Shown piece by piece: positions 17,589 through 32,338 of a stretch of DNA of 64,000 bases (position 1 is its first letter; every line of letters begins with the position of its first letter). Below the pieces are notes generated by a model. The model searched no databases. It saw only the letters and a list, made by a program, of their open reading frames with translations, and was not told the DNA's origin. Both the position numbers and the translations under genes were made by a program. The DNA is from Acidobacteriota bacterium. GTDB taxonomy: Bacteria > Acidobacteriota > UBA6911 > RPQK01 > JAJDTT01. The stretch is taken from positions 5,792,001 to 5,856,000 of the forward strand of contig CBDCJH010000002.1 in NCBI GenBank assembly GCA_965217775.1, read 5' to 3'.

Positions 17589-17670
17589 TGTGTGCCCTCC
17601 CGGGGTGGTCCGTGGAGACGATCGCCACGGACGGTCTGGTCAGGATAGCGCCCGGACGAGCCATTACCAA

Positions 17671-17767
17671 GTAGGGGCGGCCCTTGTGGCCGCCCTCCCT
17701 TGTGGCCGCCCTCCCCGGGGCCGAACAGTGAGGAGCGACAGAGGGCACCCACAAGGGGCGCCCCTGC
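17671..17767. repeat. GTAG-type REP doublet
   Basis: GTAGGGGCGGCCCTTGTGGCCGCCC with an internal CCCTTGTGGCCGCCC duplication, and an inverted copy GGGCACCCACAAGGGGCGCCCCTGC. Confidence 0.75.
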
Positions 17768-17846
17768 GTCGCGAGCCTCGTTCAAACCTGCTTCCCCTGT
17801 TCTACCGAACCCCAAGACAAATGGGGAAAGTCCTGTTCCGGGCTGA

Positions 17847-17875
17847 TTGTGATCCGGTCACGGCTTTGCTATGAT
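17847..17875 (+). promoter_or_regulatory. Putative sigma70 promoter of the first STAS gene
   Basis: TTGTGA-N17-TATGAT with TGn extended -10; GTGA-TCCGG-TCAC palindrome overlaps the -35. Confidence 0.45.
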
Positions 17876-17943
17876 GCCGTGCGGTTGCCATATTCCCACT
17901 GCAGAATTTAAAATCCGACCGGAGTTTTCAAGGAGTCATTTCG

Positions 17944-18282
17944 ATGGAAGTTCACACGGAGCGGAAAGGCGGCGCCATGATCGCCAGGGCGGTGGGTCGT
18001 ATCGACGGCGCCAACGCGCGTGAGTTCGAAAATGCCCTCCATGCGACACTCGGCGAAAATGACAAGGCCTTGATTCTGGACATGCAGTCGCTCTCCTACG
18101 TCAGCAGCGCGGGCCTTCGTGTCATCCTGATGGCTGCAAAGATGCTCCAAAGGCGGGGCGGAAAATTCGTGGTCTGCTCACTCTCGGATTCCATAAACGA
18201 GGTCTTCGAGATCAGTGGCTTCAACCGGATCATCCCGACCCACGCGACCCGTTCCGAAGCGCTCGCCGCCCTCGGCGAGTAG
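17944..18282 (+). CDS. STAS-domain anti-sigma factor antagonist (RsbV-like), copy 1
   Basis: 'GRIDGANAREFE', phospho-Ser motif 'LSYVSSAGLRV', 'EVFEISGF'. Confidence 0.93.
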   Translation: MEVHTERKGGAMIARAVGRIDGANAREFENALHATLGENDKALILDMQSLSYVSSAGLRVILMAAKMLQRRGGKFVVCSLSDSINEVFEISGFNRIIPTHATRSEALAALGE

Positions 18283-18476
18283 GAAACCCTTGCGTAGACT
18301 GGATTCCGGAGACCCATCCGTCGGACAGGTGGCGACGACGTTGAATTACGAGTATATCTGACCCACATTCGTGCCCACTGCCGGGAGGTCGTCGCAGCTT
18401 ACGCTGCTGGGTCCCGGCGCGAGCAATGGATCATCGGAAATGGTAGGCGTACGGCAAAGTCTACGGGAGACCTGAC

Positions 18477-19667
18477 GTGGAACCGACGAAATTGGACCTG
18501 ATGAACCGTCCCTGCAAGATCCTGGTGGTGGACGACGAACCGGATCTTGAGCCGCTCATGCTTCAGCGCATGCGGCGGGCCATCCGCGCGGGCCAGTACA
18601 CCTTCGTGTTCGCCCGTAACGGTGTCGAAGCCCTGGATCGGCTGAACGAGGAACAGGACATCGACATGGTGCTGTCGGACATCAACATGCCTCAGATGGA
18701 CGGCCTCACCTTGTTGCAGCAGATCCCCAAGGTCGACCCCAACATCCGTTCCGTCATCATTTCGGCGTACGGCGACATGAAGAACATCCGTACGGCCATG
18801 AATCGGGGCGCCTTCGACTTCGTCACCAAGCCGCTGGATTTCAAGGACCTGCGAATCACCATCGAGCGGACGGTGCAACACATGTTGGAGTGGCGCGAGG
18901 CCCTGGCGTCGCGCGACAAGCTGGTAGCGCTGCAGAACGAGCTCAACGTTGCCAACCAGATGCAGCAATCCATTCTTCCCAGCCATTTCCCCAAGACCGC
19001 CGAATACGAAGTCTCCGCCAGCATGGAGGCGGCGCGGAATGTGGGCGGCGATTTCTTCGATGTCATCTACCTTCACGCAGGCCGGATCGGTCTGGCCATT
19101 GCAGACGTTTCGGACAAGGGCGTGCCCGCCGCTCTCTTCATGATGTCCAGCCGGACTCTGCTCAAGGGTGCCGCCATCGGAACTCTGTCACCGGGCCCGG
19201 TACTGCGGGAGGTCAATAACCTGCTGGACGAGGACAATGACGCCGGCATGTTCGTCACCGTTCTGTATGCGGTGTACGATCCAGCCACCGGGGAACTCAC
19301 CTATGCCAATGGTGGGCACAACTCCCCGCTCGTCGTCCATGCCGATGGCAGTTCGTCCCTGCTTCCCCTCACTGAGGGGATCGCCCTGGGCGTGATCCCC
19401 AATCTCGATTTCCTCGAGAACACCGTGGTCCTCTCACCCGGAGACACCGTGGTTTTCTACACGGACGGCGTCACCGAGGCGATGGACGACGACGGCCAGG
19501 AGTTCGGTACGAAGCGCCTTTTCAACATCTTCGCGGATGGCTCCCCCAATGATTCCCAAGAGGCCACCGAAGCCGTCTTCAAGGCAGTGAGAGACTTTGT
19601 CGGAGATACGCCGCAATCGGACGACATTACTTGCATGACGCTCTATCGCGGGGAGAGGGATCGTTGA
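18477..19667 (+). CDS. Receiver domain + PP2C (SpoIIE/RsbU-like) phosphatase
   Basis: 'KILVVDDE...SDINMPQMDG...KP' receiver; 'VGGDFFD', 'IADVSDKG', 'YTDGVTEA', 'QSDDIT'. Start may be ATG 18501. Confidence 0.93.
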   Translation: MEPTKLDLMNRPCKILVVDDEPDLEPLMLQRMRRAIRAGQYTFVFARNGVEALDRLNEEQDIDMVLSDINMPQMDGLTLLQQIPKVDPNIRSVIISAYGDMKNIRTAMNRGAFDFVTKPLDFKDLRITIERTVQHMLEWREALASRDKLVALQNELNVANQMQQSILPSHFPKTAEYEVSASMEAARNVGGDFFDVIYLHAGRIGLAIADVSDKGVPAALFMMSSRTLLKGAAIGTLSPGPVLREVNNLLDEDNDAGMFVTVLYAVYDPATGELTYANGGHNSPLVVHADGSSSLLPLTEGIALGVIPNLDFLENTVVLSPGDTVVFYTDGVTEAMDDDGQEFGTKRLFNIFADGSPNDSQEATEAVFKAVRDFVGDTPQSDDITCMTLYRGERDR

Positions 19668-20083
19668 GTGGGAAACTATCCCTGAAGGTCGAACCCAGAG
19701 CCGAAGAATTGGATACGATCACCGCCGCCGTGGAGGAATTCGGCGACGCCGAACAATGGCCTCCCGACCTGATCTTTCGGGTCAACCTGGTTATCGAGGA
19801 GGTGGGACTCAACATCATCAATCACGGGAGGACCGACGATCTTCATGAGATCGAGATCACTGTGACCTCGAAGCCGGAATCCCTCACCATCGAGATCGTG
19901 GACAATGGTCTCCCCTTCGATCCGCGAAAAGACGCGCCCGAGCCCGATGTCGACGCCGGGGTCGCGGAACGTCCCATAGGCGGTCTGGGTGTCTATCTGG
20001 TGCGCACCATGATGGACGAGTTGCGCTATCGCCGCGAGGGGGACAGAAACTATCTGACGCTGGTCAAAGGGCGAGTCGAGTGA
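19664..20083 (+). CDS. RsbW-like anti-sigma factor / serine kinase, copy 1
   Basis: TTG 19664 overlaps upstream TGA; 'LVIEEVGLNIINHG', 'DNGLPFDP', 'GGLGVYLV'. Confidence 0.92.
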   Translation: MSGKLSLKVEPRAEELDTITAAVEEFGDAEQWPPDLIFRVNLVIEEVGLNIINHGRTDDLHEIEITVTSKPESLTIEIVDNGLPFDPRKDAPEPDVDAGVAERPIGGLGVYLVRTMMDELRYRREGDRNYLTLVKGRVE

Positions 20084-20260
20084 AGCGGAGGTCCGACTCG
20101 ACCACCAGGCTCCAAGCTGCCGGCTTCCAGTGTTCCACGGCGGCGCGACGGGTGGAACGGGCGGTCACCTTCGCGATAGCCTGAGGTCGTCAGCCCCGGC
20201 GAGAAACGCCCGCTGCTACGGGACACGCGAACGATCCGCTCGGTCGCGTATGGGTTTGCG

Positions 20261-21238
20261 ATGGACAGGGCCGCTGCCATGGAAACGCCGTCCGGCAAGG
20301 CCGCGACGGATGAGAACTTCCCCGTCGGCTCCTGGTTGTTGCCGGCGCACCTGCGACCCCATATCGCGACCTTCTATGCCTATGCCCGGGCGATCGACGA
20401 TATCGCCGACAATCCTGACCTGGGTCCGGACGAAAAGGTCGAGCGACTGCTCGGCTTCGCCAAAGCGGTGAGTGGCGTCGAAACAGCAGATCCCGCCTTT
20501 CGAAAAGCACACGAGATCCGCCGGAGCCTGGTTGCGACGCAGATAACGCATCGTCATTGCGTCGATCTGACGCGTGCGTTCATACAGGATGCGACCAAAC
20601 TGCGCTACGCCGACTGGAACGATCTGCTCGGCTACTGCGTCCTCTCGGCGGCGCCCGTGGGCCGGTACCTGGTCGATCTGCATGGTGAGTCGAAAGCTGC
20701 GTATCCGGCCAGCGATGCTCTTTGCAACGCTCTCCAGATCCTCAATCACCTGCAGGACTGCGGGGATGACTACAGGGCGTTGAACCGCGTCTATCTGCCC
20801 CAGAACTGGATGGCGGCAGCGGGCGCCGGGGTCGAGGCGCTCGGCCGGAAGCATTCAACGCCGGCACTCAGGCAAGTGTTGGATCGGTGCCTCGATGCAA
20901 CCGATAAGCTGTTGGAGTCGGCTGATCGATTGCCGATCCGGTTTCGCAACCTTCGTTTCGCCATGGAGACGGCCGCGATCTTCGCCATCGCCAAGAAGCT
21001 CGGTGCTGAGCTGCGCGGGCGGGACCCCCTGGCGGAACGAGTCGTGCTGACCAAGGTGCAGTATGCGGCCTGCATCCTACGCGGAGTCGGTCGGGTTCTG
21101 GACCGAAGGGTCTGGCGGCGGCGCCATCCGGCGGCGGCGCGCCCCTTGCAGTCCGTAGTGAAAGTCACGCGAGCACGGAGACCGGTCCTGCGCCCGCCGG
21201 ACAAGGCGCAACGGACGGAGCATACCGGGAGTCTGTGA
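20261..21238 (+). CDS. hpnC: Squalene synthase HpnC (last ~30 codons derive from a repeat element)
   Basis: 'ENFPVGSWLL', 'RAIDDIAD', 'SAAPVGR', 'LQILNHLQD', 'RVYLP'. Start may be ATG 20279. Confidence 0.92.
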   Translation: MDRAAAMETPSGKAATDENFPVGSWLLPAHLRPHIATFYAYARAIDDIADNPDLGPDEKVERLLGFAKAVSGVETADPAFRKAHEIRRSLVATQITHRHCVDLTRAFIQDATKLRYADWNDLLGYCVLSAAPVGRYLVDLHGESKAAYPASDALCNALQILNHLQDCGDDYRALNRVYLPQNWMAAAGAGVEALGRKHSTPALRQVLDRCLDATDKLLESADRLPIRFRNLRFAMETAAIFAIAKKLGAELRGRDPLAERVVLTKVQYAACILRGVGRVLDRRVWRRRHPAAARPLQSVVKVTRARRPVLRPPDKAQRTEHTGSL

Positions 21239-21310
21239 CCGAGTCGCAACGCAGGCCGCCGGGATGCAGGGACGGTCGAATGCCGTGACGACTCGCACCA
21301 CGGGCTGCTA
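21146..21310 (+). repeat. ~165-bp MITE-like element, copy 2 (overlaps hpnC 3' end)
   Basis: TTGCAGTCCGTAG...CCACGGGCTGCTA; shares CCTGCGCCCGCCGGACAAGGCGC and CCGCCGGGATGCAGGGACGGTCGAATGCCGTGA with copy 1. Confidence 0.85.
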
Positions 21311-21341
21311 CCAAACCCATTAGCGCGTTGGCGCCGCATCG

Positions 21342-22271
21342 GTGTTCCGACATGACGAAATCAACCGCGGGAATTCTCTCGACGTGAGCACGGCATCCCG
21401 ATCTCATGCCGGTCCGGGCAGATGGTCGTGCGGTCAGGTCAAGCCCCGGGATCACGTGAATCGCGTCGTGGAACGATCAGGCACGTCGTTCCTGTGGGCC
21501 ATGAGGGCGCTCTCGGCGGAACGGCGCCGTGCAATCTATGCGATCTACGCGTTCTGCCGGGAAGTCGACGACATTGCCGACGAACCGGGAGAAAACGCTG
21601 ACAAGAGGCGAGCATTGGCGGCTTGGCGGGAAGAGATCGACCGACTCTATGCGGGGAAGCCGAAGGGGCCGACGACAAGAGCACTGTTGGAACCGGTTCG
21701 GCGATTCAACTTGCCTCGAGAGGAATTCCTCGCGGTGATCGACGGCATGGAAATCGATGCCAAGGCCACGGTTCGGATGCAGAACCTGGATGATTTGCTG
21801 CACTATTGCCGCAAGGTTGCGGGAGCCGTCGGAATCCTTTCCATCCATGCATTCGGCGTGCCGCGGAACCCGGGATTTCAAATCGCCGAGAAGCTCGGAA
21901 ACGCCCTGCAGCTGACCAACATCCTGCGCGACCTGAAAGAGGATGCGGCATTGCAGCGTCTCTACGTGCCTCTGGAACTGCTCAGCAAGCATGGTGTCGC
22001 CACCACCTCGTTGAACGCGGTTTTGGTCGATCCGGGCTTTAGCGGAGCCTGCGCCGAACTCGCCGGCCTCGCTCGCCGTTACTATTCCGAAACCGAGAGC
22101 CTGATTACGGAATTCGGATGGCGGAGGATTCGGCCTGCCGTTCTCATGATGGCGGTCTATCGAGAATTGCTCGACCGCCTCGAAGAACGGGGATGGACGC
22201 GAATCGATGTATCGATCCGGCTGACGCGGCTCCGGAAGATGCTGCTCGCTCTGCGTTACGGCCTTTGCTGA
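21342..22271 (+). CDS. hpnD: Presqualene diphosphate synthase HpnD
   Basis: 'SGTSFLWAM', 'YAFCREVDDIAD', 'ALQLTNILRD'; true start probably further downstream. Confidence 0.92.
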   Translation: MFRHDEINRGNSLDVSTASRSHAGPGRWSCGQVKPRDHVNRVVERSGTSFLWAMRALSAERRRAIYAIYAFCREVDDIADEPGENADKRRALAAWREEIDRLYAGKPKGPTTRALLEPVRRFNLPREEFLAVIDGMEIDAKATVRMQNLDDLLHYCRKVAGAVGILSIHAFGVPRNPGFQIAEKLGNALQLTNILRDLKEDAALQRLYVPLELLSKHGVATTSLNAVLVDPGFSGACAELAGLARRYYSETESLITEFGWRRIRPAVLMMAVYRELLDRLEERGWTRIDVSIRLTRLRKMLLALRYGLC

Positions 22272-22283
22272 CGGACGTTCACC

Positions 22284-23561
22284 GTGCCCCGAACCCACAT
22301 CGTCGGTGCCGGCTTGGCGGGTCTTGCCGCCGCAGTGTCGTTGGTGCGCCACGGCCGGGAGGTGACGGTCTACGAAGCCAGTGGGCATGCGGGCGGCCGC
22401 TGCCGCTCATTCGTTGACGGCAAGCTCGATCGCACGATAGACAACGGCAACCATCTGCTGCTCAGCGGCAACCGGTCCGCGATGCGCTATCTGGCGGACA
22501 TCAAGGCCGCGGACTCCCTGATCGGCCCGGTCTCGGCCTGCTTTCCATTCCTGGATCTGCGCACGGGTCAGCGATGGCTATTGCGGCCGAACGCCGGGAG
22601 AGTTCCATGGTGGATACTGAATTCCAGGCGGCGCGTGCCGGACACAAAGGTCTGGAATTACCTTTCGGCGCTGCGGTTCGCCATGGCTGGAGCCGATACG
22701 ATTGTGACCGACTGCGTCGGCGACTCCGGAGTTCTGTTCGAGAGATTCTGGAGACCGCTGGCGGTGGGGGCATTGAATACTCCGGCTCGCGCCGGTGCGG
22801 CGCAGCTCTTGTGGTCCGTGTTGCGCGAGACCTTTGCCCAGGGAGAGGCGGCCTGCCGTCCGCGGATCGCGAAGGCGGGACTCTCCGCCGCCTTCGTCGA
22901 GCCGGCGCTGAAATTGCTGCAACAAAAGGGCGCAACGGTTCGGTTTGGCCACCGCTTACGCAGAATCAACTACCGGTGCCGCCGTGCGAGTGGTCTGGAC
23001 TTCGGATCGGAAAGAATAAAATTGCGAGATGGAGAGGCCGTGGTTCTGGCCGTTTCGCCGCCGGCTGCGGCGGAACTGGTGCCGGCGCTGGCCGTCCCCG
23101 AAGAGACCCACGCCATCGTCAACGTTCATTATCGCTTGACGGCACCGGCTGGCCTGCCGCCGGAGCTTCCCCTGCTGGGGCTGATCGGAGGGACCGCGCA
23201 GTGGCTCTTCGTTCGTGGTGACGTTGCTTCCATCACGGTCAGCGCGGCGGATGCCCTGGCGGCCGAGCCGTCCGGAAAGATTGCCCGCAAGGCCTGGAAC
23301 GACGTGGCGACGGCACTGGGCCATCAGCGGGAGAAAGTGCCGCCCTGTCGCATCGTCAAGGAGAAGCGCGCCACCTTTGCCCAGACGCCGGATCAGGTGA
23401 AGCGTCGTCCACAAACCAGAAGCGAGTTTACCAACCTGTATCTGGCGGGGGATTGGATCGATACGGGTCTGCCCGCAACCATCGAGAGCGCCGTTCGGTC
23501 CGGTCAAATGGCGGCTCGGGCCATAGCCGGAAATGGACCGACGACCACCGGTCGACTTTAG
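22284..23561 (+). CDS. hpnE: Hydroxysqualene dehydroxylase HpnE (FAD-dependent)
   Basis: 'VGAGLAGLAAA', 'GGRCRSF', 'IDNGNHLLLSGN', 'KEKRATF', 'LAGDWIDTGLPATIESAVRSG'. Confidence 0.93.
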   Translation: MPRTHIVGAGLAGLAAAVSLVRHGREVTVYEASGHAGGRCRSFVDGKLDRTIDNGNHLLLSGNRSAMRYLADIKAADSLIGPVSACFPFLDLRTGQRWLLRPNAGRVPWWILNSRRRVPDTKVWNYLSALRFAMAGADTIVTDCVGDSGVLFERFWRPLAVGALNTPARAGAAQLLWSVLRETFAQGEAACRPRIAKAGLSAAFVEPALKLLQQKGATVRFGHRLRRINYRCRRASGLDFGSERIKLRDGEAVVLAVSPPAAAELVPALAVPEETHAIVNVHYRLTAPAGLPPELPLLGLIGGTAQWLFVRGDVASITVSAADALAAEPSGKIARKAWNDVATALGHQREKVPPCRIVKEKRATFAQTPDQVKRRPQTRSEFTNLYLAGDWIDTGLPATIESAVRSGQMAARAIAGNGPTTTGRL

Positions 23562-23754
23562 CCTGACCCAAAGTTCTCGCCAAGCCAGAAACGCTGCCTT
23601 CCCCATCAGCAGAATTCGGCGCCGCCCTGGATATCCCGGCGAGGATTTCCATCGGTTGGCGGTGCGGTAGTGGTTTTGCTTGGATGTCCACGGGTGGTAA
23701 TATCCCCGAAAAGTTGTCGGGAGGTTTCGGCCACAATATCCGGGAGTTAGAGCA

Positions 23755-24093
23755 ATGGAGGTTCAAGCCGAGCGGGAAGACGGGACCTTGATCGCACGGG
23801 CGGAGGGTCGTGTCGACGGCAACAATGCCCGCGAGCTCGAGGAGGCGCTCAATGCGGCAATCGGAGAAAACGATCGTCTCCTGATCATGGACTTGCAGGA
23901 TCTCTCCTACATCAGCAGCGCCGGCCTTCGAGTTTTTCTGATGATTGCCAAGAAGTTCCAGAGACGAGACGGGAAATTCGTGGTCTGCTCGCTCGCCGAA
24001 ACCATCAGCGAGGTTTTTGAGATCAGTGGTTTCAATAAGATCATCCCAACTCATACCTCCCGGGCCGACGCACTCGCCAGGCACGGTGGTTAG
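23755..24093 (+). CDS. STAS-domain anti-sigma factor antagonist, copy 2
   Basis: Same length as, and clearly paralogous to, 17944-18282 ('LSYISSAGLRV', 'EVFEISGFNKII'); stop TAG is the first triplet of repeat copy 3. Confidence 0.93.
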   Translation: MEVQAEREDGTLIARAEGRVDGNNARELEEALNAAIGENDRLLIMDLQDLSYISSAGLRVFLMIAKKFQRRDGKFVVCSLAETISEVFEISGFNKIIPTHTSRADALARHGG

Positions 24094-24256
24094 CAGCCCG
24101 TGGCAAAAGTCGTCACGGCATTCGACCGTCCCTGCATCGTGCGCGGACTGCGTTGCTATCGGCTCACATACTCCCGGTATGCTCCCTCCGTTGCGCCTTG
24201 TCCGGCGGGCGCAGGAACGGTCTCGGTGCTCGCGCGACTTTCACCACGGACTGTCA
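24091..24256 (-). repeat. ~165-bp MITE-like element, copy 3 (inverted)
   Basis: TAGCAGCCCGTGG...CCACGGACTGTCA, reverse-complement homolog of copies 1 and 2. Confidence 0.85.
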
Positions 24257-24392
24257 GAATCTCACCGCGGAGACCCGTTTTGGTGCCGGTCGAGTCTTCT
24301 GCATTTCGCCGTCGGGGCACACTTGATGACGAGCAATATTCGAAGCGGAAGGGGATTGCGTTGGTGACAAGGCGCAGTCGTCCGTTTTCTCC

Positions 24393-24428
24393 TGCATGAC
24401 GTTCCTTCGGAGCGAGAGGCATCGTTGA
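24393..24428 (+). pseudogene. 3' remnant of a second REC-PP2C phosphatase gene
   Basis: Encodes CMTFLRSERHR*, versus CMTLYRGERDR* at 19632-19667 (29/36 nt identical by hand count), with the same TTGA overlap onto an rsbW-like gene. Confidence 0.75.
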
Positions 24429-24844
24429 GCCGGAAGCTGTCCCTGGAGATCGAACCCAGCGTCGAAGAACTGAGTACGATTACGGCCGCCGTAGAGCAGT
24501 TCGGGGACGCGGAGCAATGGCCGCCCGACCTGGTCTTTCAAATCAATCTGGTGATCGAAGAGCTGGGACTCAACATCATGACCCACGGGATGAGCGAGGA
24601 TCTCGAGAAGATCGAGATCACGCTGACCGTGGAAGGGGAATCCCTCACCATCGAAATCGTGGACAATGGTCGTCCCTTCGATCCGACCAGCGATGCTCCC
24701 GAGCCCGACCTGGATTCCGGCATAGGGGAACGTAGTATCGGCGGACTCGGTGTCCATATCGTACGCAGCTTGATGGACAGCTTGTGCTACCGGCGTCAGG
24801 GGGGGAGAAATCATGTGACTCTGGTCAAGGAGCGGGTCCGATGA
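24425..24844 (+). CDS. RsbW-like anti-sigma factor, copy 2
   Basis: Paralog of 19664-20083: 'LVIEELGLNIMTHG', 'DNGRPFDP', 'GGLGVHIV'. Confidence 0.92.
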   Translation: MSRKLSLEIEPSVEELSTITAAVEQFGDAEQWPPDLVFQINLVIEELGLNIMTHGMSEDLEKIEITLTVEGESLTIEIVDNGRPFDPTSDAPEPDLDSGIGERSIGGLGVHIVRSLMDSLCYRRQGGRNHVTLVKERVR

Positions 24845-26025
24845 AGCGATCGTCCCGCCGGCTGGCCGCTCTTTTCGTGCTCGTAATTCCTTGGCTATTG
24901 ACGGCAATGCCGGTGCCGGCGCAGCAACCCGGTGTTTCCGACGAACGCATTCTTTTCGGACAGTCCGCCGCCTTCAGCGGTCCTGCCCAAGAGTTGGGGA
25001 AAAGCATGCGCGTCGGGATCGAGGCCGCCTTCCACGAAGTCAACCGGGCGGGCGGCGTCCACGGCCGGCGGTTGGAGTTGAAGTGGCTGGACGACGTCTA
25101 CGAGCCGGAAGCCGCCGTCGCCAATACTCTTGCTCTGATCAGGGAACAAGAGGTTTTCGCTCTCATCGGCGCTGTCGGCACACCGACTTCGCGCGCGGCG
25201 GTTCCGGTTGCCGCGGACGCGGGTGTGCCCTATATCGCCCCGTTCACGGGTGCCGCGTTCCTGCGCGATGCCAAATGGAGCAACGTCATCAACCTCCGAG
25301 CCTCCTACAACCAGGAGACAGAGGAAATGGTGGCCCGGTTGACCGAGGACATGGGCATCAAGCGGATCGCCGTGCTGTACCAGGACGATTCCTTCGGTCG
25401 AGCCGGATACCGCGGAGTGCGGACCGCACTCGACCGGAGAAAGATGACGCCGGTGGCCATCGGACTGTATCCTCGCAATACCCTGGCAGTGAAAATGGCT
25501 CTCCTGGATGTGAACGAGGGGGACCCCAAAGCCGTAATTCTCATCGGAGCGTACAAACCTCTCGCCACGTTCATCTCGTGGGCGCGGTTTTCGGGTCTGC
25601 ATGCCGTATTCATGAACATCTCCTTCGTGGGCAGCAACGCATTGGCGCAAGAGCTTGGATCCGGCGGCGCCGGTGTCTATGTCACTCAGGTCGTTCCCTT
25701 TCCGACCGACAGATCTCTTCCCATCGTCCTCGACTACCATCGCGCCCTGTCCGCCTACGCATCCGGCACGGTTCCCGGGTTTATCTCCTTCGAAGGCTAT
25801 CTGGCCGGACGCCTGGCCATTGCCGGCCTGAAGAGTTGTGGGCGTGAGGTCAGCCGCACCCATTTTCTGGACGGTTTTCGCCAAGCCGGAATGATCGATC
25901 TCGGCGGGTTTCGACTTCGATTCGGGAATCAGGACAACCAGGGGTCGGACGCTGTTTTTCTGACCGTGATCGGTCGTGACGGTCGATATCGTCCGATCAG
26001 CTCACTGCTGGAAGCGGCGCCGTGA
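24841..26025 (+). CDS. Type-1 periplasmic solute-binding protein (LivJ/LivK-like)
   Basis: ATG 24841 overlaps rsbW stop; signal peptide; 'GQSAAFSGPA', 'GGVHGRRLEL', 'GAVGTPT', 'NLRASY'. Confidence 0.9.
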   Translation: MKRSSRRLAALFVLVIPWLLTAMPVPAQQPGVSDERILFGQSAAFSGPAQELGKSMRVGIEAAFHEVNRAGGVHGRRLELKWLDDVYEPEAAVANTLALIREQEVFALIGAVGTPTSRAAVPVAADAGVPYIAPFTGAAFLRDAKWSNVINLRASYNQETEEMVARLTEDMGIKRIAVLYQDDSFGRAGYRGVRTALDRRKMTPVAIGLYPRNTLAVKMALLDVNEGDPKAVILIGAYKPLATFISWARFSGLHAVFMNISFVGSNALAQELGSGGAGVYVTQVVPFPTDRSLPIVLDYHRALSAYASGTVPGFISFEGYLAGRLAIAGLKSCGREVSRTHFLDGFRQAGMIDLGGFRLRFGNQDNQGSDAVFLTVIGRDGRYRPISSLLEAAP

Positions 26026-28202
26026 TCGAACGACTGAACCGTTTGCTCGGAAGTCTGCTGCAGAGTCGCTTTCGGATCTCGACGCAGCTCTACGCCACCA
26101 TCGGGGGCGCCGTCGCCCTGACCATTTCCGCGAGCCTGGTGGGCTGGTTTTCCTTCGATCGCGTGGGCGATCTCCAGAGTCGTGTCAACGAACTCCGCTT
26201 CCCGGAATTGGAGGCCGCGTTCGGCGTTGCCCAGTTCAGTGGAGTCCTGGTCGCGGCCGCACCGCGCCTGACCACGGCCGAAACGCAGGAGGACTTTAAC
26301 CAGGTTGCAGCCGGCATCGCGGAAGCGAATCAGGCGCTTGAGGACCAATTGGCCGTTCTGGAGCGCCAGGATTCGGCGGATGAACGCTTCCAGCGCATAC
26401 GTGCGCAGGCCGATACGCTGATATCCAACATCCGGGCGATTGAAACCGATATGTCCGCGATTTACGAGCTGGCCGATCGGAGTGCGGATCTGCGAACGGA
26501 ACTCTTGGATTTGCAAGGGCGTCTGCAGCGGGTGATTTTTCCGGCCGTCGACGATCAGTTCTTCTACACCATCACGGGGCACCGCACCCTGGGTGAACCT
26601 CCGGCCCCCCGTTGGAAACATTTTTCGGAAGCAGAGTTCGATCGTTTTCGTCATCTGACGGATCTTCTCGCGGACGCCAATACTGCAACCCAACTTCTGG
26701 AGAGCGCATTCACGGTTTCGGATGCCTTCTTGATTGAGCCTTTGAGAGACAAGTTCGAGGCCTCCCGCAACCGCATAGAACGGAGCCTTTCGACCTTGGA
26801 AGGATCCCAATTGGGTGGCCGGATCTCGTCTGATTTACAACGCCTGTTCGAGTTGGGGGCCGGGGAGGAGGGCTGCCTGAATCTGCTGGTCCGTCAACTC
26901 AGACTTACGGCGCGGCAGCGGGGACTCTTGGCGCGGAACCAGGAGATCACCATCGATCTGGTGACCGAAGTCGATGACCTGGTCAAAGCGTCGCAAGCGA
27001 GCGCGGCAGCCGACACTCAAGAATCCACACAGGCCATCCTGGCAGGCCGGACCCTCCTCGTCGCCATCAACGGGCTCAGCATCGTCGGCGCCGTGCTCAT
27101 CGCCTGGCTGATTGTGGGCCGGATATTGCTCCGCCGTCTGGCGCTGTTGTCGCAGCGCATGCGGCGAATGGCCGGCGGAGAACTGGAAGGCAAGGTCGAG
27201 ATCGAAGGGAGGGACGAGGTAGCCGACATGGCTGCGGCCCTTGAGGTGTTTCGCCGTCACGCGCTGGAGGTTCAGCGTCTGAACTTGGTGGAGAAGCTGG
27301 CGGAGGAGTTGCGCGGTAAGAACGCCCAATTGGAGAGCGTGCTCGCGGACTTGCGGAAGGCTCAGGACCAGATCGTCATGCGTGAAAAGCTGGCGGCGCT
27401 CGGTGAGCTCACAGCGGGCGTCGCCCATGAGATCAAGAATCCCTTGAACTTCGTCAAGAACTTCGCGGAGGCGTCGGAGGAACTCCTGGAGGAACTCCAG
27501 GAAATCCTCGAAGCAGAGAGCGAAAAATTTAAAGCGGACGACCGCGAGTTGGTCGAGGAATTGATTCAGGATCTCAACGATAATCTTCGGCGCATCCACT
27601 CACACGGTGAACGGGCCAACCGCATCGTTCACGACATGCTCATGATGGGACGCGGCTCAGGCGAGTGGCAGGTGATCGACGTCAACAATCTGCTCGATGA
27701 ACACACCCGGCTCGCCTACCATAGCGCCAGGGCGACCGATCCTGACTTCCAACTCCACATGCAGATGAGTCTGGATCCGGAGACGGGTCAGTTCGAAGTC
27801 GTTCCGCAGGACATGGGCCGGGTGTTTCTGAACATGGTGGGCAACGCCTGCTACGCGACCGATCAGAAACGGCGCGCGGCTGTCGAGGCGGGGAAAGATT
27901 TTTTCGCCTACATGCCCACTCTGTGGGTCGCCACCCGGCGTCTCGATGACCGGGTCGAGGTCCGGATCAAGGATAATGGGAACGGAATCCCACCCGAGAT
28001 CGTGGACAAGATCTTCAATCCGTTCTTCACGACGAAGCCGACCGACCAGGGAACAGGGCTGGGCCTTGCTCTTTCCAACGACATCGTGCGGGAGCATGGG
28101 GGATCCATTCGAGTGGAAACCGAACCCGGCGAGTTCACCGAAATGATTGTCGAGGTCCCCGCGATGCGGCCCGTTGCCATGGAAGGGGCTCCCGGGCAAT
28201 AG
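26022..28202 (+). CDS. Sensor histidine kinase (long helical periplasmic domain, TorS-like; HAMP; HisKA; HATPase)
   Basis: Two TMs; HAMP 'GRDEVADMAAALEVFR'; H-box 'AGVAHEIKNPLN'; 'DNGNGI', 'PFFTTK', 'GTGLGL'; no receiver domain. Confidence 0.92.
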   Translation: MIERLNRLLGSLLQSRFRISTQLYATIGGAVALTISASLVGWFSFDRVGDLQSRVNELRFPELEAAFGVAQFSGVLVAAAPRLTTAETQEDFNQVAAGIAEANQALEDQLAVLERQDSADERFQRIRAQADTLISNIRAIETDMSAIYELADRSADLRTELLDLQGRLQRVIFPAVDDQFFYTITGHRTLGEPPAPRWKHFSEAEFDRFRHLTDLLADANTATQLLESAFTVSDAFLIEPLRDKFEASRNRIERSLSTLEGSQLGGRISSDLQRLFELGAGEEGCLNLLVRQLRLTARQRGLLARNQEITIDLVTEVDDLVKASQASAAADTQESTQAILAGRTLLVAINGLSIVGAVLIAWLIVGRILLRRLALLSQRMRRMAGGELEGKVEIEGRDEVADMAAALEVFRRHALEVQRLNLVEKLAEELRGKNAQLESVLADLRKAQDQIVMREKLAALGELTAGVAHEIKNPLNFVKNFAEASEELLEELQEILEAESEKFKADDRELVEELIQDLNDNLRRIHSHGERANRIVHDMLMMGRGSGEWQVIDVNNLLDEHTRLAYHSARATDPDFQLHMQMSLDPETGQFEVVPQDMGRVFLNMVGNACYATDQKRRAAVEAGKDFFAYMPTLWVATRRLDDRVEVRIKDNGNGIPPEIVDKIFNPFFTTKPTDQGTGLGLALSNDIVREHGGSIRVETEPGEFTEMIVEVPAMRPVAMEGAPGQ

Positions 28203-28318
28203 CCGAGTTAGTCCCTGACCCGAGACCCTCCGGGTCACCATCGTTGCTGAAGCGGTAGTGGTGCCGGATAGCGAGATGTTCTAATATCGATCGCTATCTC
28301 CCTTCGCGAGTCGGCCAC

Positions 28319-29752
28319 ATGGAATTTCGATCCTACGACCTGGACGTCCAGTACTACGACGAAATGTTCCGTGCGGACGGCACTCCGCGAGAACATAGTC
28401 AATTACTGTACGAAGCCCTGAGCCGACTGTCGGTCGAGGAAGTCGGCAGCATTCAGGAACGCGTGACGAGTTCGTTCTCCCATGAAGGAATCACCTTTAC
28501 CGTTTACGGCGACGAAGAAGCCGAGGAGCGCATCATCCCCATCGACTGCGTTCCCCGAATTCTTTCGGGAGATGAGTGGCGCCAGTTGGAAGCCGGCCTG
28601 ACCCAGCGGCTCACGGCTCTGAACCATTTTCTGCAGGATATATACAACGAGGCTCGCATTATTGCGGACGGGGTCATCCCGTTGGACATGGTGCGGGGTT
28701 GTCCGCAGTACCGTCTGGAAATGCGTGGATTTTCGGCGCCCCATGGCGTCTGGGTCGGCGTCTGCGGAACCGACCTGGTCCGCACCCATGACGGATTCTG
28801 CGTGTTGGAAGACAATCTGCGGGTCCCCTCGGGGGTGTCGTACATGGTCGCCAACCGGAAGGCGGTGAAGGCCAGTCTTCGCCTCCTTTACCGAAACTCC
28901 CGGGTGAGAGAAGTGGAGCACTACGGACGAGTCCTGCTCCGGACCCTGCGAGAGCTGGCGCCCAAAGATCGGTCGGGAGCCTGCATCGTGCTGCTGACAC
29001 CCGGCGTCTACAATTCCGCGTTCTACGAGCACATATTTTTGGCAAACGAGATCGGTGCGGAATTGGTGGAAGGCCGTGACTTGTTGGTCAACGATGGCTA
29101 CGTGTACATGCGAACTACGGCGGGCCTGAAGCGCGTCGACGTGATTTACCGGCGTGTGGACGACGATTTTCTCGATCCTCTGGTATTTCGACCCGACTCT
29201 CTGCTGGGGGTCCCGGGGCTGATCCATGCCTACAAGCAGGGCAATGTTTCCCTGGTGAACGCGCCCGGTACCGGCGTCGCCGATGACAAGAGCGTTTATG
29301 CTTATGTGCCGGACATGGTCCGTTACTACTTGGGTGAAGAGCCGCTTTTGAACAACGTGAAGACTTGGATTTGCCGCCGGCCCGAAGAACTTGAATATGC
29401 GCTCGACAACCTGGAGAACCTGGTGGTGAAACGGGTAGGAGAGTCCGGCGGGTATGGCATGCTGGTCGGTCCGCACTCGACTCGCCAAGAGCGTGTCGAA
29501 TACGCGAAGCAGATGCAGGCCAACCCGGCCGATTTCATTGCGCAACCGGTATTGTCGCTCTCTCGCGCGCCCTGTGTCATCGACGGCCAGGCTGAACCGC
29601 GCCACGTCGATCTGCGTCCATTCGTTCTCAATGGCCGTCGGATTCGCATCGTCCCCGGAGCCTTCTGCCGCGTGGCGCTGCGCCGGGGCAGCCTGGTGGT
29701 GAACTCGAGTCAGGGCGGAGGCGGCAAGGACCTGTGGGTGTTGGAAGACTGA
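28319..29752 (+). CDS. Circularly permuted type-2 ATP-grasp protein
   Basis: 'GITFTVY', 'LEDNLRVPSGVSY', 'LTPGVYNSAFYEH', 'VDVIYRRVDDDFLDP', 'ESGGYGM', 'VVNSSQGGGGKDLWV'. Confidence 0.95.
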   Translation: MEFRSYDLDVQYYDEMFRADGTPREHSQLLYEALSRLSVEEVGSIQERVTSSFSHEGITFTVYGDEEAEERIIPIDCVPRILSGDEWRQLEAGLTQRLTALNHFLQDIYNEARIIADGVIPLDMVRGCPQYRLEMRGFSAPHGVWVGVCGTDLVRTHDGFCVLEDNLRVPSGVSYMVANRKAVKASLRLLYRNSRVREVEHYGRVLLRTLRELAPKDRSGACIVLLTPGVYNSAFYEHIFLANEIGAELVEGRDLLVNDGYVYMRTTAGLKRVDVIYRRVDDDFLDPLVFRPDSLLGVPGLIHAYKQGNVSLVNAPGTGVADDKSVYAYVPDMVRYYLGEEPLLNNVKTWICRRPEELEYALDNLENLVVKRVGESGGYGMLVGPHSTRQERVEYAKQMQANPADFIAQPVLSLSRAPCVIDGQAEPRHVDLRPFVLNGRRIRIVPGAFCRVALRRGSLVVNSSQGGGGKDLWVLED

Positions 29753-29832: not shown

Positions 29833-31221
29833 ATGAGAGAAGGAGCGAAGACGCCGCTGCACAGACGGTTGGTGCGGGGCGTGGCAGGGAAACTGTTGCT
29901 GGTGGTGATCTGTCTGCTCTGCGGGACGGCGGCGGCGCAGGCGGCGGTGGACGAAGAGGTGCTGTACGTGTTCAACACCTTCTCGTTCATGATCTGGGGC
30001 GCCATGGTGATGTGGATGTGCGCCGGGTTCACGATGCTGGAGTCGGGATCGGTGCGGACCAAGAACGCCTCCATGATCTGCATGAAGAACATCGGGCTGT
30101 ACTCGATCGCGGGGCTGGCCTACTACGTGATCGGGTACAACCTGATGTACACGGACGTGGGGAGCGTGATCGGGTCGTTCAAATTGCTGTACGGGCCGTC
30201 GGCGGAAGATCTGGCGCTGGTGGCGGGCCAGGACGGGGCGGCGGCCGCGGTGACGGGGGCCGACAGCAAGTACTCGACCATGTCGGACTGGTTTTTCCAG
30301 ATGGTGTTCGTGGCGACGGCGGCGTCGATCGTCTCGGGGGCGCTGGCCGAGCGGGTGAAGATGTGGTCGTTTTTCGTGTTCGTGGCGGTGCTGACGGCGG
30401 TGATCTACCCGGTGGTGGGCGCGTGGACCTGGGGCGGCGGCTGGCTGAACGCGATGGGATTCCAGGATTTCGCCGGTTCCACGATCGTGCACAGTACGGG
30501 CGGCTGGGCCGCGTTGGCGGGGATCCTGATCGTGGGGCCGCGGCTGGGCAAGTACCGGAAGGACGGGACGGTGAAGCCGACGCCGCCGTCGAACGTGATC
30601 CTGGTGACGCTGGGGGTGTTCATCCTCTGGTTCGGGTGGTTCGGATTCAACGGCGGGTCGCAGTTGGCGCTGGGGAGCGCGGCGGACGCGATGGCGATGA
30701 GCCACGTGCTGGTGAACACGAACCTGGCGGCGGCGGCCGGGGTGGTGACGGCCCTGATCGTGTCGCGGCCGATCCTGGGACGCAATGACCTGTTCGCGAC
30801 GTTGAACGGGGCGATAGCGGGCCTGGTGGCGATCACGGCGGGACCGGACATCGTGTCGCACCACTGGTCGATCATCATCGGCGCCATCGGAGCCATCCTG
30901 TGCACGGCGGGGATCAAGTTCCTGGAGAAGTTCAAGATCGACGACGTGGTGGGGGCGGTGCCGGCGCACCTGTTTGCGGGGACCTGGGGAACGATCGCGG
31001 TCTGCATCGCGGCGGGCGGCAACATCGGGGTCCAGTTGCTGGGCATCTTGGCGGTGGGTGCGTTCGTATTCGCGACTTCACTGATCGTGTGGAAGGTACT
31101 GGCGGTGACGATGGGCGTTCGGGTGTCGGCCCAGGTGGAACGGCTGGGACAGGACGTGGGCGAGCTGGGCATGGAAGCCTATCCCGAGTTCGTCCTCATG
31201 CCTGAAGAACTGGACGACTAG
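29833..31221 (+). CDS. amtB: Ammonium transporter (Amt family)
   Basis: 'WFFQMVF', 'SGALAER', 'DFAGSTIVH', 'LWFGWFGFNGGS', 'DDVVGAVPAH' (both pore His present). Confidence 0.96.
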   Translation: MREGAKTPLHRRLVRGVAGKLLLVVICLLCGTAAAQAAVDEEVLYVFNTFSFMIWGAMVMWMCAGFTMLESGSVRTKNASMICMKNIGLYSIAGLAYYVIGYNLMYTDVGSVIGSFKLLYGPSAEDLALVAGQDGAAAAVTGADSKYSTMSDWFFQMVFVATAASIVSGALAERVKMWSFFVFVAVLTAVIYPVVGAWTWGGGWLNAMGFQDFAGSTIVHSTGGWAALAGILIVGPRLGKYRKDGTVKPTPPSNVILVTLGVFILWFGWFGFNGGSQLALGSAADAMAMSHVLVNTNLAAAAGVVTALIVSRPILGRNDLFATLNGAIAGLVAITAGPDIVSHHWSIIIGAIGAILCTAGIKFLEKFKIDDVVGAVPAHLFAGTWGTIAVCIAAGGNIGVQLLGILAVGAFVFATSLIVWKVLAVTMGVRVSAQVERLGQDVGELGMEAYPEFVLMPEELDD

Positions 31222-31323: not shown

Positions 31324-32334
31324 TTGATCGGCAGGAGATCCAGGTTGCTTTCGCGCAACGCCCAAGGTCTGTATTGGATGGGCCGTTACCTTGAGAGGGC
31401 GGAGTATCTCTCCCGCCTGTTGCGACTGCAGGTCGAGGCTCTGGTGGATCGGCCGATTCGTGAGATCCACTTTGGGTGGAGCCGTATCTACATCAGTCTG
31501 AACCGGCATCCGCCCGGGGGGCCCCTGGAGCTTCTGGGAGGCGAGGAGGACGATCCTTTAGGCGATTCCTATACGCTGGCCGATTCCTACACCTTGGCCG
31601 ACGATCTCACTTTCGAAAGGTCGAATCCCGATTCGGTATTCAGTTGTTTCGCCATGGGCCGTGAAAACGCCCGCCAGATGCGCAATCGGATCAGTGCCGA
31701 GATGTGGAGTTGTCTGAACCGGGCTTATCTGCGGCTCCAGGACATGACCATCCAGAAGATCTGGAAGGTCTCCCCGGAGAATTTCTACGTGGCAACGGCG
31801 CGTGACATCGACACCTTCAACGGGGTCGCGGAAGTGACCATGTATCGTGATGAAGGCTGGCGTTTCTGGCGGCTGGGGCGCGCCATCGAACGGTCCCAGT
31901 CCTCGGCCGGGTTGTTTCTGGCCCAAATGAACGCCGGCCGTCGGCTCGACTCGTCTTTGGGAGAGGACTGGACCGGTCTTCTGCGCTTCTGTCAGGCGTT
32001 TGACGCCTACAATCGAAAATATAGCGTCGACGTGCAGCCGGATCAGGTTCTGGATTTGCTGGTGACGGACCCGCGTCTGCCCGGCTCCCTCTTTCGATCC
32101 CTCAACGCGGCAGTCATGGAGCTTGACGCCATCGGCCCCGGCCCCATCGCCGAATCGGGTGCACAGGCGCGGCGTCTGGCGGGCCGTCTTCGAGCATTGA
32201 TCCACTATGCCTGGCCGGATCGGGAGGACCACGAGAGTTTGCTCCAGTGGATCGGGGAGAACTGCCGGAAGCTCCACGAACTGGTCATCGCGGCCTATGT
32301 CGACTACCCCATCGAGGACTCCCCGCTACGCTGA
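31324..32334 (+). CDS. Alpha-E domain protein
   Basis: 'LLSRNAQGLYWMGRYLERAE', 'RENARQMRNRISAEMW', 'RLGRAIERS' (conserved ER motifs). Confidence 0.92.
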   Translation: MIGRRSRLLSRNAQGLYWMGRYLERAEYLSRLLRLQVEALVDRPIREIHFGWSRIYISLNRHPPGGPLELLGGEEDDPLGDSYTLADSYTLADDLTFERSNPDSVFSCFAMGRENARQMRNRISAEMWSCLNRAYLRLQDMTIQKIWKVSPENFYVATARDIDTFNGVAEVTMYRDEGWRFWRLGRAIERSQSSAGLFLAQMNAGRRLDSSLGEDWTGLLRFCQAFDAYNRKYSVDVQPDQVLDLLVTDPRLPGSLFRSLNAAVMELDAIGPGPIAESGAQARRLAGRLRALIHYAWPDREDHESLLQWIGENCRKLHELVIAAYVDYPIEDSPLR

Positions 32335-32338
32335 TCCC

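Follow-up and report, generated by a model that had tools for sequence, protein, structure and literature searches.

We analysed a window of 64,000 nucleotides from an Acidobacteriota bacterium (assembly GCA_965217775.1, contig CBDCJH010000002.1, positions 5,792,001 to 5,856,000), in which the squalene synthesis genes hpnCDE stand among the genes of a signalling system composed of a solute-binding protein (SBP), a sensor histidine kinase (HK), a receiver fused to a phosphatase (REC-PP2C) and a partner switch of STAS and RsbW-type proteins. A sequence-only reading of this DNA had proposed a binding protein, kinase and partner-switch cascade wrapped around squalene synthesis. Here we show that STAS, REC-PP2C, RsbW, SBP and HK are one conserved cassette present in many phyla, which has probably spread horizontally; the region is probably a rearranged copy of it, with the squalene genes as cargo.

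Gene content of the locus

The string is composed of ten genes:

17944..18282, + strand: STAS1, single-domain protein of anti-sigma-antagonist type, 112 amino acids (PF01740, 79.6 bits; TIGR00377, 84.2 bits)
18477..19667, + strand: REC-PP2C, receiver fused to a SpoIIE-type phosphatase (PF00072, 88.5 bits; PF07228, 179.7 bits)
19664..20083, + strand: RsbW1, GHKL serine-kinase-type protein (HATPase_c_2), 139 amino acids, start revised (PF13581, 95.4 bits)
20261..21238, + strand: hpnC, hydroxysqualene synthase type (SQS_PSY; TIGR03464, 263.6 bits against a cut-off of 250.45, residues 13-276)
21342..22271, + strand: hpnD, presqualene diphosphate synthase type (SQS_PSY; TIGR03465, 309 bits against a cut-off of 278.6)
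22284..23561, + strand: hpnE, hydroxysqualene dehydroxylase type (Amino_oxidase; TIGR03467, 400 bits against a cut-off of 283.05)
23755..24093, + strand: STAS2 (PF01740, 74.6 bits)
24425..24844, + strand: RsbW2, HATPase_c_2 (PF13581, 90.1 bits)
24841..26025 (open reading frame, ORF, from 24784), + strand: SBP of Peripla_BP_6, HAAT type, with a signal peptide (PF13458, 188.2 bits; one hydrophobic N-terminal segment)
26022..28202, + strand: HK with a first transmembrane segment (TM1), a TorS-like periplasmic domain (about residues 46-338), a second segment (TM2), HAMP, HisKA and HATPase_c (Pfam; hydrophobic segments)

The sequence-only reading described this gene content correctly. In fact, every ORF matches the family that had been named for it (Pfam), and the three squalene proteins, encoded by adjacent genes (20261-23561), are all above their NCBIfam equivalog cut-offs. 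The last three genes overlap by 4 bases at their start and stop codons, as read from the sequence: the stop of RsbW2 and the ATG of SBP share ATGA at 24841-24844, and the stop of SBP and the GTG of HK share GTGA at 26022-26025. The first of these overlaps, and the signal-peptide-like segment 3' of it, make 24841 the likely start of SBP, not 24784. The start of RsbW1 is most likely the TTG at 19664, not 19631, overlapping the stop codon of REC-PP2C at 19665-19667, because the longer 5' extension holds a stop codon in two related loci (L011 and L014) and the short form is in register with RsbW2.

The absences that had been listed are also real. The window has no LivH/M-type ABC permease for the SBP; the four BPD_transp_2 (LivH/M-type) genes of the genome all lie at 1.92-2.65 Mb of contig C2, more than 3 Mb from the window at 5.79-5.86 Mb. 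The kinase matched only HAMP, HisKA and HATPase_c in Pfam and carries no receiver, none of the 15 Sigma70_r2 matches of the genome falls inside the window, and a squalene-hopene cyclase is found neither in the window nor in the whole genome. The string is not a product of chance or of assembly, because 8 related genomes have it too, in all 9 of their loci.

A five-gene cassette in many phyla

An alignment of REC-PP2C from the genus and from a genome of another family of the same order (G023) was used as query against a species-level genome collection, where it retrieved 537 relatives. The best 80 by similarity were kept; they comprise one record of a genus relative (L020, from G004, titled Acidobacteriota) and 79 loci outside the genus, whose context was read by tblastn over a range of 10 kb with a query set that held no sigma factor. 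The record titles of the 79 loci, which are metagenome-assembled genomes (MAGs), name Dehalococcoidia or Chloroflexota, Acidimicrobiia, Rhodothermales, Latescibacterota, Gemmatimonadota, Bryobacterales, and Gamma- and Alphaproteobacteria. STAS, REC-PP2C, RsbW, SBP and HK are contiguous and in that order in 68 of the 79 loci, and the last four of them in 73. In loci of other phyla the identity to the genes of the window is 64-75% for REC-PP2C, 48-74% for SBP, 49-65% for HK, 42-62% for STAS and 40-61% for RsbW. Because the loci were picked by similarity and include close kin, these counts describe the sample and not independent events. The five genes are one conserved cassette in many phyla, and it has probably spread horizontally. 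No description of this cassette was found in the literature.

The window does not have the cassette in its contiguous form: hpnCDE, STAS2 and RsbW2, about 4.7 kb, separate RsbW1 from SBP. Downstream of HK the window continues with genes that form a set typical of cassette loci (28319-33232):

28319..29752, + strand: circularly permuted ATP-grasp protein, CP_ATPgrasp (PF14403, 521.8 bits)
29833..31221, + strand: ammonium transporter Amt (PF00909, 332.7 bits)
31324..32334, + strand: Alpha-E domain protein (PF04168, 219.4 bits)
32207..33232, + strand: transglutaminase-like protein (PF01841 and PF08379)

Within 10 kb, a CP_ATPgrasp gene was found in 22 of the 79 loci, an Alpha-E gene in 21, a transglutaminase gene in 11 and any Amt gene in 27, with an Amt of at least 60% identity in 13; a distant Amt paralogue stands directly upstream of the cassette, on the same strand, in 14 loci. 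The squalene genes show a different distribution, as hpnC, hpnD or hpnE lies within 10 kb of the cassette in a single one of the 79 loci. Synteny of hpnCDE with the switch genes, for which a search had been proposed, is thus no general feature.

Beyond the transglutaminase gene the window encodes a hydantoinase B/oxoprolinase (33263-34990), an Alginate_exp-type outer-membrane protein (35018-36679) and a protein of the acetamidase/formamidase family (37658-38539). The amide- and nitrogen-related genes of this stretch (33263-38539) are compatible with an amide-type ligand of the SBP.

Duplication and rearrangement in this lineage

Within the order of the window's genome we searched 41 genomes, namely this one, 8 others of the genus, 6 of a sister genus and 26 of other families. 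HpnE is above its cut-off in this genome, in 7 of the 8 other genus genomes, in none of the 6 of the sister genus and in one of the 26 of other families, which is G023. REC-PP2C has the same distribution plus one genome, G021, which has an uninterrupted cassette and no HpnE. In the 8 HpnE-positive relatives, STAS-REC-PP2C-RsbW-hpnC-hpnD-hpnE is contiguous in 9 of 9 loci.

The arrangement in G023 is the most informative for the origin of the string. A first STAS-REC-PP2C-RsbW is followed there by hpnCDE, an MpaB/Lcp-like oxygenase gene (PF09995), and genes for an MMPL transporter that carries a sterol-sensing domain, for a LolA_like protein and for a DUF1302-like one; then comes a second STAS-REC-PP2C-RsbW, contiguous with SBP-HK, and finally CP_ATPgrasp and Amt. 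The block of about 10 kb is thus bounded by a direct repeat of 2222 bp (STAS-REC-PP2C-RsbW), 97.7% identical in DNA. In the genus the second REC-PP2C is gone, and about 30 bp of homology are left 5' of RsbW2. A remnant of REC-PP2C was sought between STAS2 and RsbW2; no match was obtained at E 1e-6, and the gap is occupied by a repeat resembling miniature inverted-repeat transposable elements (MITE-like repeat). The split layout is kept in 8 loci from 7 genus genomes. The four non-hpn genes stand between hpnE and STAS2 in six loci of relatives (L011, L013, L015, L016, L018 and L019), are truncated in L017, and are absent at the window locus and in L014.

The second switch genes are similar to the first: STAS2 is 68% identical to STAS1 in protein and 75% in DNA, and the RsbW2 region (24393-24848) has 78% DNA homology to that of RsbW1. 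The 18 RsbW copies from the genus and G023 fall together in one clade of their tree (support 100, starred), within which RsbW1 and RsbW2 separate into subclades; RsbW2 of the genus is a starred clade as well (100), and the two G023 copies are sisters. In the STAS tree all 19 copies are on one side of a branch (support 91), and STAS2 has its own starred subclade of 8 rows (98). Both trees place the duplication inside this lineage; STAS2 and RsbW2 are, as their sequences indicate, lineage-specific duplicates of STAS1 and RsbW1.

According to these comparisons the layout arose in four steps. Duplication of the first three cassette genes gave a direct repeat on either side of a mobile block of some 10 kb, a state that survives in G023. 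The second REC-PP2C was then deleted in the genus, leaving STAS2-RsbW2 still translationally coupled to SBP-HK; the four non-hpn genes were deleted in this genome and in G007; and MITE-like repeats were inserted after hpnC and after STAS2. A flanking direct repeat around foreign DNA would be expected either from single-crossover integration or from tandem duplication followed by insertion, and both fit.

Another STAS-RsbW duplication, of independent origin, occupies the same position of the cassette in a locus of Latescibacterota (L097). The two RsbW copies of this locus are sisters (support 99, starred), and between the two STAS-RsbW copies lies, on the opposite strand, a gene for an NCS2 nucleobase permease (L097:11640-13391).

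One genus genome, G004, has the whole string twice, in opposite orientation and about 420 kb apart on one contig (L018, C1:530000-549500; L019, C1:105500-125000), and the duplicated stretch takes in flanking sulfatase and FG-GAP genes. It is either a large inverted duplication or an artefact of assembly or binning, the contamination estimate being 8%.

The sensor pair

In HK, two hydrophobic segments bound about 290 residues. A model of this periplasmic domain, built with 25 sequences, has a pLDDT of 87.7 and a pTM of 0.75, and its top six matches in the PDB are all sensor domains of TorS (3o1i_A, 3o1j_A, 3o1h_A and 3i9y among them), with E values from 1.5e-6 to 1.8e-4. The best of them, 3o1i_A (E 1.5e-6), gives TM scores of 0.76/0.82 at 16% identity. 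The comparison with TorT/TorS-type pairs made by the sequence-only reading therefore holds at the level of structure.

A complex of the mature SBP with HK residues 46-338 was also predicted. Its ipSAE is 0.66 (median of three runs), the best of 3 controls reaching 0.00; 116 of 157 solved complexes reach the mark applied to this score, as do 2 of 215 mismatched pairs, a calibration that is only rough because we used our own alignments. The partner pLDDT is at least 92, the contacts agree across the three runs (at least 100%), and the predicted interface (HK 162-191 with SBP 211-222 and 246-251) coincides with invariant columns in both alignments (A2 and A3). Binding of SBP to the sensor domain of HK is supported by these models; since a similar complex has been solved and our own alignments were supplied, the score demonstrates likeness to TorS-TorT and is no proof of binding. 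The nearest solved relative of SBP is 4kv7_A, an uncharacterised 'probable Leu/Ile/Val-binding protein' (E 1.6e-92). No transporter partner lies near the SBP; it is predicted to act as co-sensor of the kinase.

The pair is like TorT/TorS (PDB 3o1h, 3o1i and 3o1j) in having a long periplasmic domain made of a helical bundle (TM scores 0.74-0.82) and, as predicted here, a binding protein as co-sensor. It differs in several respects: the identity to TorS is 14-16%, the TorS equivalog model gives HK 138.9 bits against a cut-off of 676.5, the SBP is of Peripla_BP_6/HAAT type, and the kinase is devoid of receiver and HPt domains, its partner regulator being a phosphatase and not the DNA-binding TorR.

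The relay and the partner switch

The only receiver in the string sits on the PP2C protein. REC-PP2C is the only copy in the genome, where the next-best match is 35% identical over 235 residues, and it is 84-95% identical in the copies of 9 relatives; the acidic pocket of the receiver, Asp68, Lys118 and the aspartates of the PP2C domain do not vary across 10 sequences. If the RsfS/RsfR pair (PMC10950880) is a guide, the kinase would set the activity of the phosphatase, with either sign.

Across the whole genome there are exactly two genes of RsbW type, a single REC-PP2C of this kind and four genes for STAS proteins. Ser55 of STAS1 lines up with the SpoIIAA serine, the phosphosite, for which chain 1tid_B has alanine (compare 1th8_B), and STAS2 has the same local motif around its serine. 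Both RsbW1 and RsbW2 display boxes of the Asn, DxG and GxG types. The equivalog models of RsbW and SpoIIAB give these proteins 33 bits against cut-offs of 135-155.

The pathway proposed from the sequence, from ligand through SBP, HK and REC-PP2C to STAS/RsbW, is thus supported by a conserved unit (68/79), a TorS-like fold and a predicted SBP contact, and we infer it on sound grounds. It would begin with a solute in the periplasm, probably of amino-acid or amide type, that loads the SBP; the SBP would dock on the TorS-like sensor domain, and HK would phosphorylate the single REC-PP2C. The balance between PP2C and the two RsbW kinases would then set the phosphorylation of Ser55 in STAS1 and of its counterparts in STAS2 and probably in a third protein, STAS3 (see below). 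The STAS proteins or RsbW would finally act on a target by protein contact.

Gene state, expression and repeats

All ten ORFs are open. The pairwise ratio of non-synonymous to synonymous substitution rates (dN/dS) of the nine genes tested, STAS1 through SBP, is 0.06-0.50, which indicates purifying selection, also between two genomes that lack the export genes; the ranges are 0.17-0.40 for STAS1, 0.14-0.50 for RsbW1, 0.17-0.26 for hpnC, 0.20-0.23 for hpnD and 0.20-0.35 for hpnE.

Contigs of four RNA libraries (X1-X4) of one study, labelled sponge metagenome, are 95-99% identical to the window. They cover STAS1, REC-PP2C, RsbW1, hpnC, hpnD, STAS2, RsbW2, SBP, HK and genes downstream, and they bridge STAS1/REC-PP2C, REC-PP2C/RsbW1 and SBP/HK. 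Among the contigs listed none runs across RsbW1/hpnC or hpnE/STAS2 and the bins of hpnE have next to no cover, such contigs being silent on absence. A contig of low depth joining 18833 to 28366 through 22 foreign letters looks chimeric and was discarded.

Repeats and a promoter-like site accompany the genes:

17697..17836: dispersed repeat of about 140 bp, 5' of STAS1 (blastn against own genome)
17885..17914, + strand: promoter-like site with 10 of 12 consensus matches, 30 bp 5' of STAS1 (scan against shuffles)
21149..21310: MITE-like repeat of about 165 bp in the tail of the hpnC ORF (255 high-scoring segment pairs, HSPs, in own genome, about 90% identical)
24091..24253: MITE-like repeat directly 3' of STAS2 (268 HSPs in own genome, up to 98% identity)

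The region has 4 promoter-like sites against 3.3 expected from shuffles, a weak hint, and terminator-like sites are no more frequent in it than in shuffles. The stretch 17585-17947 gives 60 HSPs in the genome, itself included, at 72-88% identity. The repeat at 21149-21310 is an inverted copy of that at 24091-24253 (89.6% identical), and from about 21149 onward it encodes the last 30 or so codons of the hpnC ORF. The summed depth of RNA contigs over 24091-24253 is very high, as expected for a repeat.

An 86-bp stretch in the gap between Amt and the Alpha-E gene (31219-31304) is skipped in contigs of all four RNA libraries, which come from a related strain, and the surrounding bin has a high summed depth; it is probably another small dispersed insertion.

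The squalene genes

The hpn block is found with and without the switch. A gammaproteobacterial MAG (G451, record Candidatus Azotimanducaceae) encodes an HpnC (71% identical to that of the window), an HpnD (72%) and an HpnE (69%), with an SDR gene upstream, a DUF1302-like fragment beside hpnE and no switch genes; its own cassette is about 0.7 Mb off, and an IS110-family transposase gene stands between its hpnC and hpnD (L104:12690-13907). The hpn block is mobile independently of the cassette. HpnE is above its cut-off somewhere in 28 of 41 cassette-bearing genomes searched, and within 10 kb of the cassette in none of the 41 loci. The single neighbouring case among the 79 loci is a Dehalococcoidia locus (L077), where ispH-hpnC-hpnD-hpnE and an MpaB-like gene (L077:4937-6232) lie 3.4 kb upstream of the cassette; its Hpn proteins are 27-34% identical to those of the window, and it counts as a weak second co-localisation.

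In this genome hpnE is the sole copy above the cut-off, and another HpnE-like frame (L003) is a protoporphyrinogen oxidase. In a sample of 401 genomes of the phylum searched at E 1e-50, with four candidates scored per genome, HpnE relatives appeared only in the genus (5/5) and in G023, a threshold under which a distant HpnE would be missed, so that the search says nothing on absence of HpnE from the phylum.

Enzymes that would use squalene were looked for. For squalene-hopene cyclase the best score in this genome with TIGR01507 is 23.2 bits against a cut-off of 431.1, and the model is not passed in any of 5 relatives searched; one frame of 416 amino acids outside the window reaches 28.1 against 26.1 bits with the Pfam domain of the cyclase C-terminus, covering only positions 213-315 of 319. 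Hopanoid output, which the sequence-only reading had regarded as a possible end point, is excluded, because neither the genome nor the 5 relatives has a cyclase. As for desaturation on a route to C30 carotenoids, no crtI_fam match for a CrtN/CrtI-type enzyme is above the cut-off in the genome (best 105.4 against 238.1 bits). The sole carotenoid-type oxidoreductase candidate in the genome is a CrtO-like/CrtI-family frame of 739 amino acids (L009:58-2277; G000:C2:4152702-4154921), with 320 bits against a cut-off of 1000 and an N-terminal extension of about 220 residues. The product of hpnCDE is accordingly predicted, from the enzyme families, to be squalene and not hopanoids.

The four-gene set 3' of hpnCDE in relatives (L016:10911-16472, L012:2979-8700, L011:10888-15265) suggests that squalene, or a derivative cleaved from it, is handled and exported in them, and constitutes a candidate oxidation and export route. 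In this genome only the synthesis genes of the block are retained, and a search of the whole genome gave no copy of the module and no MpaB-like, MMPL, LolA-like or DUF1302-like homologue.

Squalene synthesis in the absence of shc is reported for Acidobacteria of subdivision 6 in passages of PMC5462960. The present genome and 5 of 5 relatives are like them in having HpnCDE and no cyclase; they differ from what those passages describe in the signalling genes, the MpaB-like oxygenase and the MMPL module beside hpnCDE. No passage on HpnCDE without a cyclase was found in PMC7306690. Searches of the literature found no paper joining the latex clearing protein with squalene or hpnC, and nothing relevant on squalene or hopanoids in acidobacterial symbionts of sponges; no description of a partner switch beside hpnCDE was found either, in agreement with the sequence-only reading, which knew of no description of such a linkage.

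Candidate outputs of the switch

When the whole genome was searched for a SigB/F/G-type sigma factor, the top score was 127.8 bits (cut-off 234.35), from a frame of 597 amino acids. For this reason a target reached by protein contact is likelier than a classical anti-sigma role.

A third STAS protein of the genome, STAS3, is 63% identical to STAS1 and is encoded directly upstream of a second ammonium transporter gene, Amt2 (L102:7852-9878; G000:C2:5979860-5981877). Amt2 is 99.35% identical to the Amt of the window and passes TIGR03644 (532.8 bits against 514), and all 5 genus genomes that were searched have the STAS3-Amt pair, with a spacer of 136-137 bp. This pairing, together with the Amt and amidoligase neighbours of the cassette in other loci, makes nitrogen-related control our best guess for the output, though it is somewhat less likely than not. 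Judged by its recurrent neighbours, the cassette more likely acts on ammonium transport and the ATP-grasp, Alpha-E and transglutaminase genes. No relevant paper linking an anti-sigma factor antagonist with an ammonium transporter in symbionts was found.

Comparison with known partner switches

The system is of a known kind, a partner switch that receives its input from a two-component system. The parts of switches of the SpoIIAA/AB/E or RsbV/W/U type are all present (a STAS protein with its serine, an RsbW-type GHKL kinase, a PP2C phosphatase), while the cognate sigma factor was not found. What sets it apart is the TorS-like sensor with an SBP, the missing sigma factor, and a layout that is split and duplicated.

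In Mycobacterium smegmatis, according to passages of PMC10950880, the membrane histidine kinase RsfS phosphorylates the REC-PP2C protein RsfR, which dephosphorylates the STAS protein RsfB. The logic of HK, REC-PP2C and STAS is the same in our string, and RsfB (8ih8_A) is a sequence relative of STAS1 (E 8.7e-5). RsfS, as those passages describe it, senses through a CHASE3 domain, not through a TorS-like domain and an SBP, and its output is SigF. Moreover, the genes there do not belong to a five-gene cassette with an SBP, and here no SigB/F-type sigma factor was found in the genome.

HsbR of Pseudomonas is a single fused REC-PP2C/RsbW-type protein, whereas REC-PP2C and RsbW are here separate, translationally coupled genes; the input of HsbR is HptB, fed from hybrid kinases. 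In this HptB-HsbR-HsbA system, as passages of PMC6482189 and PMC5085249 have it, a phosphorelay, a REC-PP2C and an RsbW-type kinase set the phosphorylation of a STAS protein. Our switch would be like HsbA in having a STAS target other than SigB/F. SypE, in Vibrio fischeri, combines kinase, receiver and phosphatase in one protein. It belongs with the STAS protein SypA, whose kinase and phosphatase it is, inside the syp polysaccharide locus (passages of PMC4517449 and PMC10120452), and the likeness to our string is that of a switch inside a biosynthesis and export cluster with no sigma factor. In that case, however, the cluster makes polysaccharide and, in the same passages, the switch genes belong to syp across Vibrio, whereas the link with hpnCDE is restricted to one lineage.

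Weighing the explanations

We consider it probable that the region is a rearranged copy of the horizontally spread five-gene cassette and that the squalene genes are at most co-transcribed cargo. They are probably a passenger, not the target of the cassette, and the layout of the string is accounted for by a duplication of the first cassette genes with the hpn block between. That the switch is wrapped around squalene synthesis as the purpose of the system, as had been proposed, is not upheld: hpnCDE are near the cassette in one of 79 loci, G021 has the cassette with no hpnCDE, and G451 has hpnCDE with no switch. Some points weigh against our explanation. The upstream switch copy stands directly before hpnC in 9 of 9 loci and is under purifying selection, which fits control of squalene equally well. 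Amt is missing within 10 kb in 52 of the 79 loci and CP_ATPgrasp in 57, and these loci, as the best 80 of 537 by likeness of REC-PP2C and with many related MAGs among them, are not independent samples. The SBP-HK prediction may pass by resemblance to the solved TorS-TorT complexes, and the RNA-library contigs may hold DNA and show neither strand nor transcript ends. Finally, our account of phosphotransfer, of kinase and phosphatase action, and of ligand and target is deduced throughout.

The partner switch may instead be a dedicated regulator of squalene, STAS1-REC-PP2C-RsbW1 having been recruited for hpnCDE, ancestrally with the oxygenase and export genes, and acting either through co-transcription or through direct contact between switch proteins and enzymes; we consider this unlikely. 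It would agree with the placement of STAS-REC-PP2C-RsbW immediately before hpnC, in the same orientation, in all 9 loci of the genus and G023, with purifying selection on both switch copies, with the three-gene repeat kept at 97.7% identity in G023, and with the sole promoter-like site of 10/12 matches lying 5' of STAS1 while terminator-like sites do not exceed shuffles; the distant ispH-hpnCDE and MpaB-like genes 3.4 kb from the cassette in L077 and the HpnE above cut-off in 28 of 41 cassette-bearing genomes point the same way. However, of the 79 loci outside the genus a single one has hpnCDE within 10 kb of the cassette, the nine loci of the genus and G023 probably trace back to one evolutionary event, and G021, of the same order, has an intact cassette and no HpnE. 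The hpnCDE block of G451 (69-72% identical) stands beside SDR, IS110 and a DUF1302-like fragment with no switch genes, and the independent STAS-RsbW duplication of L097 took up, in the same place, a nucleobase permease as cargo. It is likewise unlikely that the upstream switch copy was co-opted for squalene control in this lineage. The same low probability applies to the fuller form of this idea, in which STAS1-REC-PP2C-RsbW1 would have been co-opted for the mobile squalene island of hpnCDE and the four accompanying genes (the DUF1302-like one for an outer-membrane protein), and squalene or an oxidatively cleaved product of it would be made and exported by these cyclase-less bacteria in dependence on the sensed solute, perhaps a nitrogen-related one.

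It is equally improbable that the switch is a classical one, with RsbW1, RsbW2 or both as anti-sigma factors for a sigma factor encoded elsewhere, whose regulon might include hpnCDE. The HATPase_c_2 proteins do give weak matches to the RsbW and SpoIIAB models, the genome has its 15 Sigma70_r2 matches, and in passages of PMC10950880 RsfS/RsfR acts through a STAS protein on SigF, the loss of sigF abolishing carotenoid pigmentation in M. smegmatis. The equivalog scores are nevertheless far under their cut-offs (33 against 135-155 bits), no SigB/F/G-type factor was found in the genome (127.8 against 234.35 bits), and no sigma gene lies in the window; the 79 loci were queried with a set that had no sigma factor in it. 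Very improbable is a decaying leftover, a split cassette that no longer works and whose present arrangement would be a neutral scar. In line with decay, four cargo genes and one of the copies of REC-PP2C have been deleted, and MITE-like repeats have entered the string, one of them supplying the tail of the hpnC ORF; but the ten ORFs are open, the nine genes tested have dN/dS of 0.06-0.50, the RsbW2/SBP and SBP/HK overlaps are kept, the split layout persists in 8 loci from 7 genus genomes, and RNA-library contigs lie on most of the genes.

Implications

If the co-option explanation were true, a triterpenoid output would be tied by a phosphorylation switch to a solute sensed by the SBP and the kinase, and the cassette would repeatedly gain outputs by duplicating its 5' part around cargo. 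Independently of it, the squalene genes with the Lcp/MpaB-like oxygenase and the MMPL, LolA-like and DUF1302-like set are a candidate squalene-handling route in bacteria devoid of a cyclase, which merits a study of its own.

For the explanation that we prefer, that of a rearranged and horizontally spread cassette, the cassette unites a TorS-like kinase loaded by a binding protein with a partner switch that has no sigma factor, and it does so in many phyla. The partial duplication of the cassette as a direct repeat around incoming cargo is a way to gain new neighbours, and it is also a warning that the neighbours of a mobile cassette are not to be read as its targets. The list of parts is small, composed of one phosphatase, two kinases and three STAS proteins (STAS1, STAS2 and STAS3), of which STAS3 is paired with Amt in all genus genomes searched, and this makes the output of the switch accessible to interaction screens.

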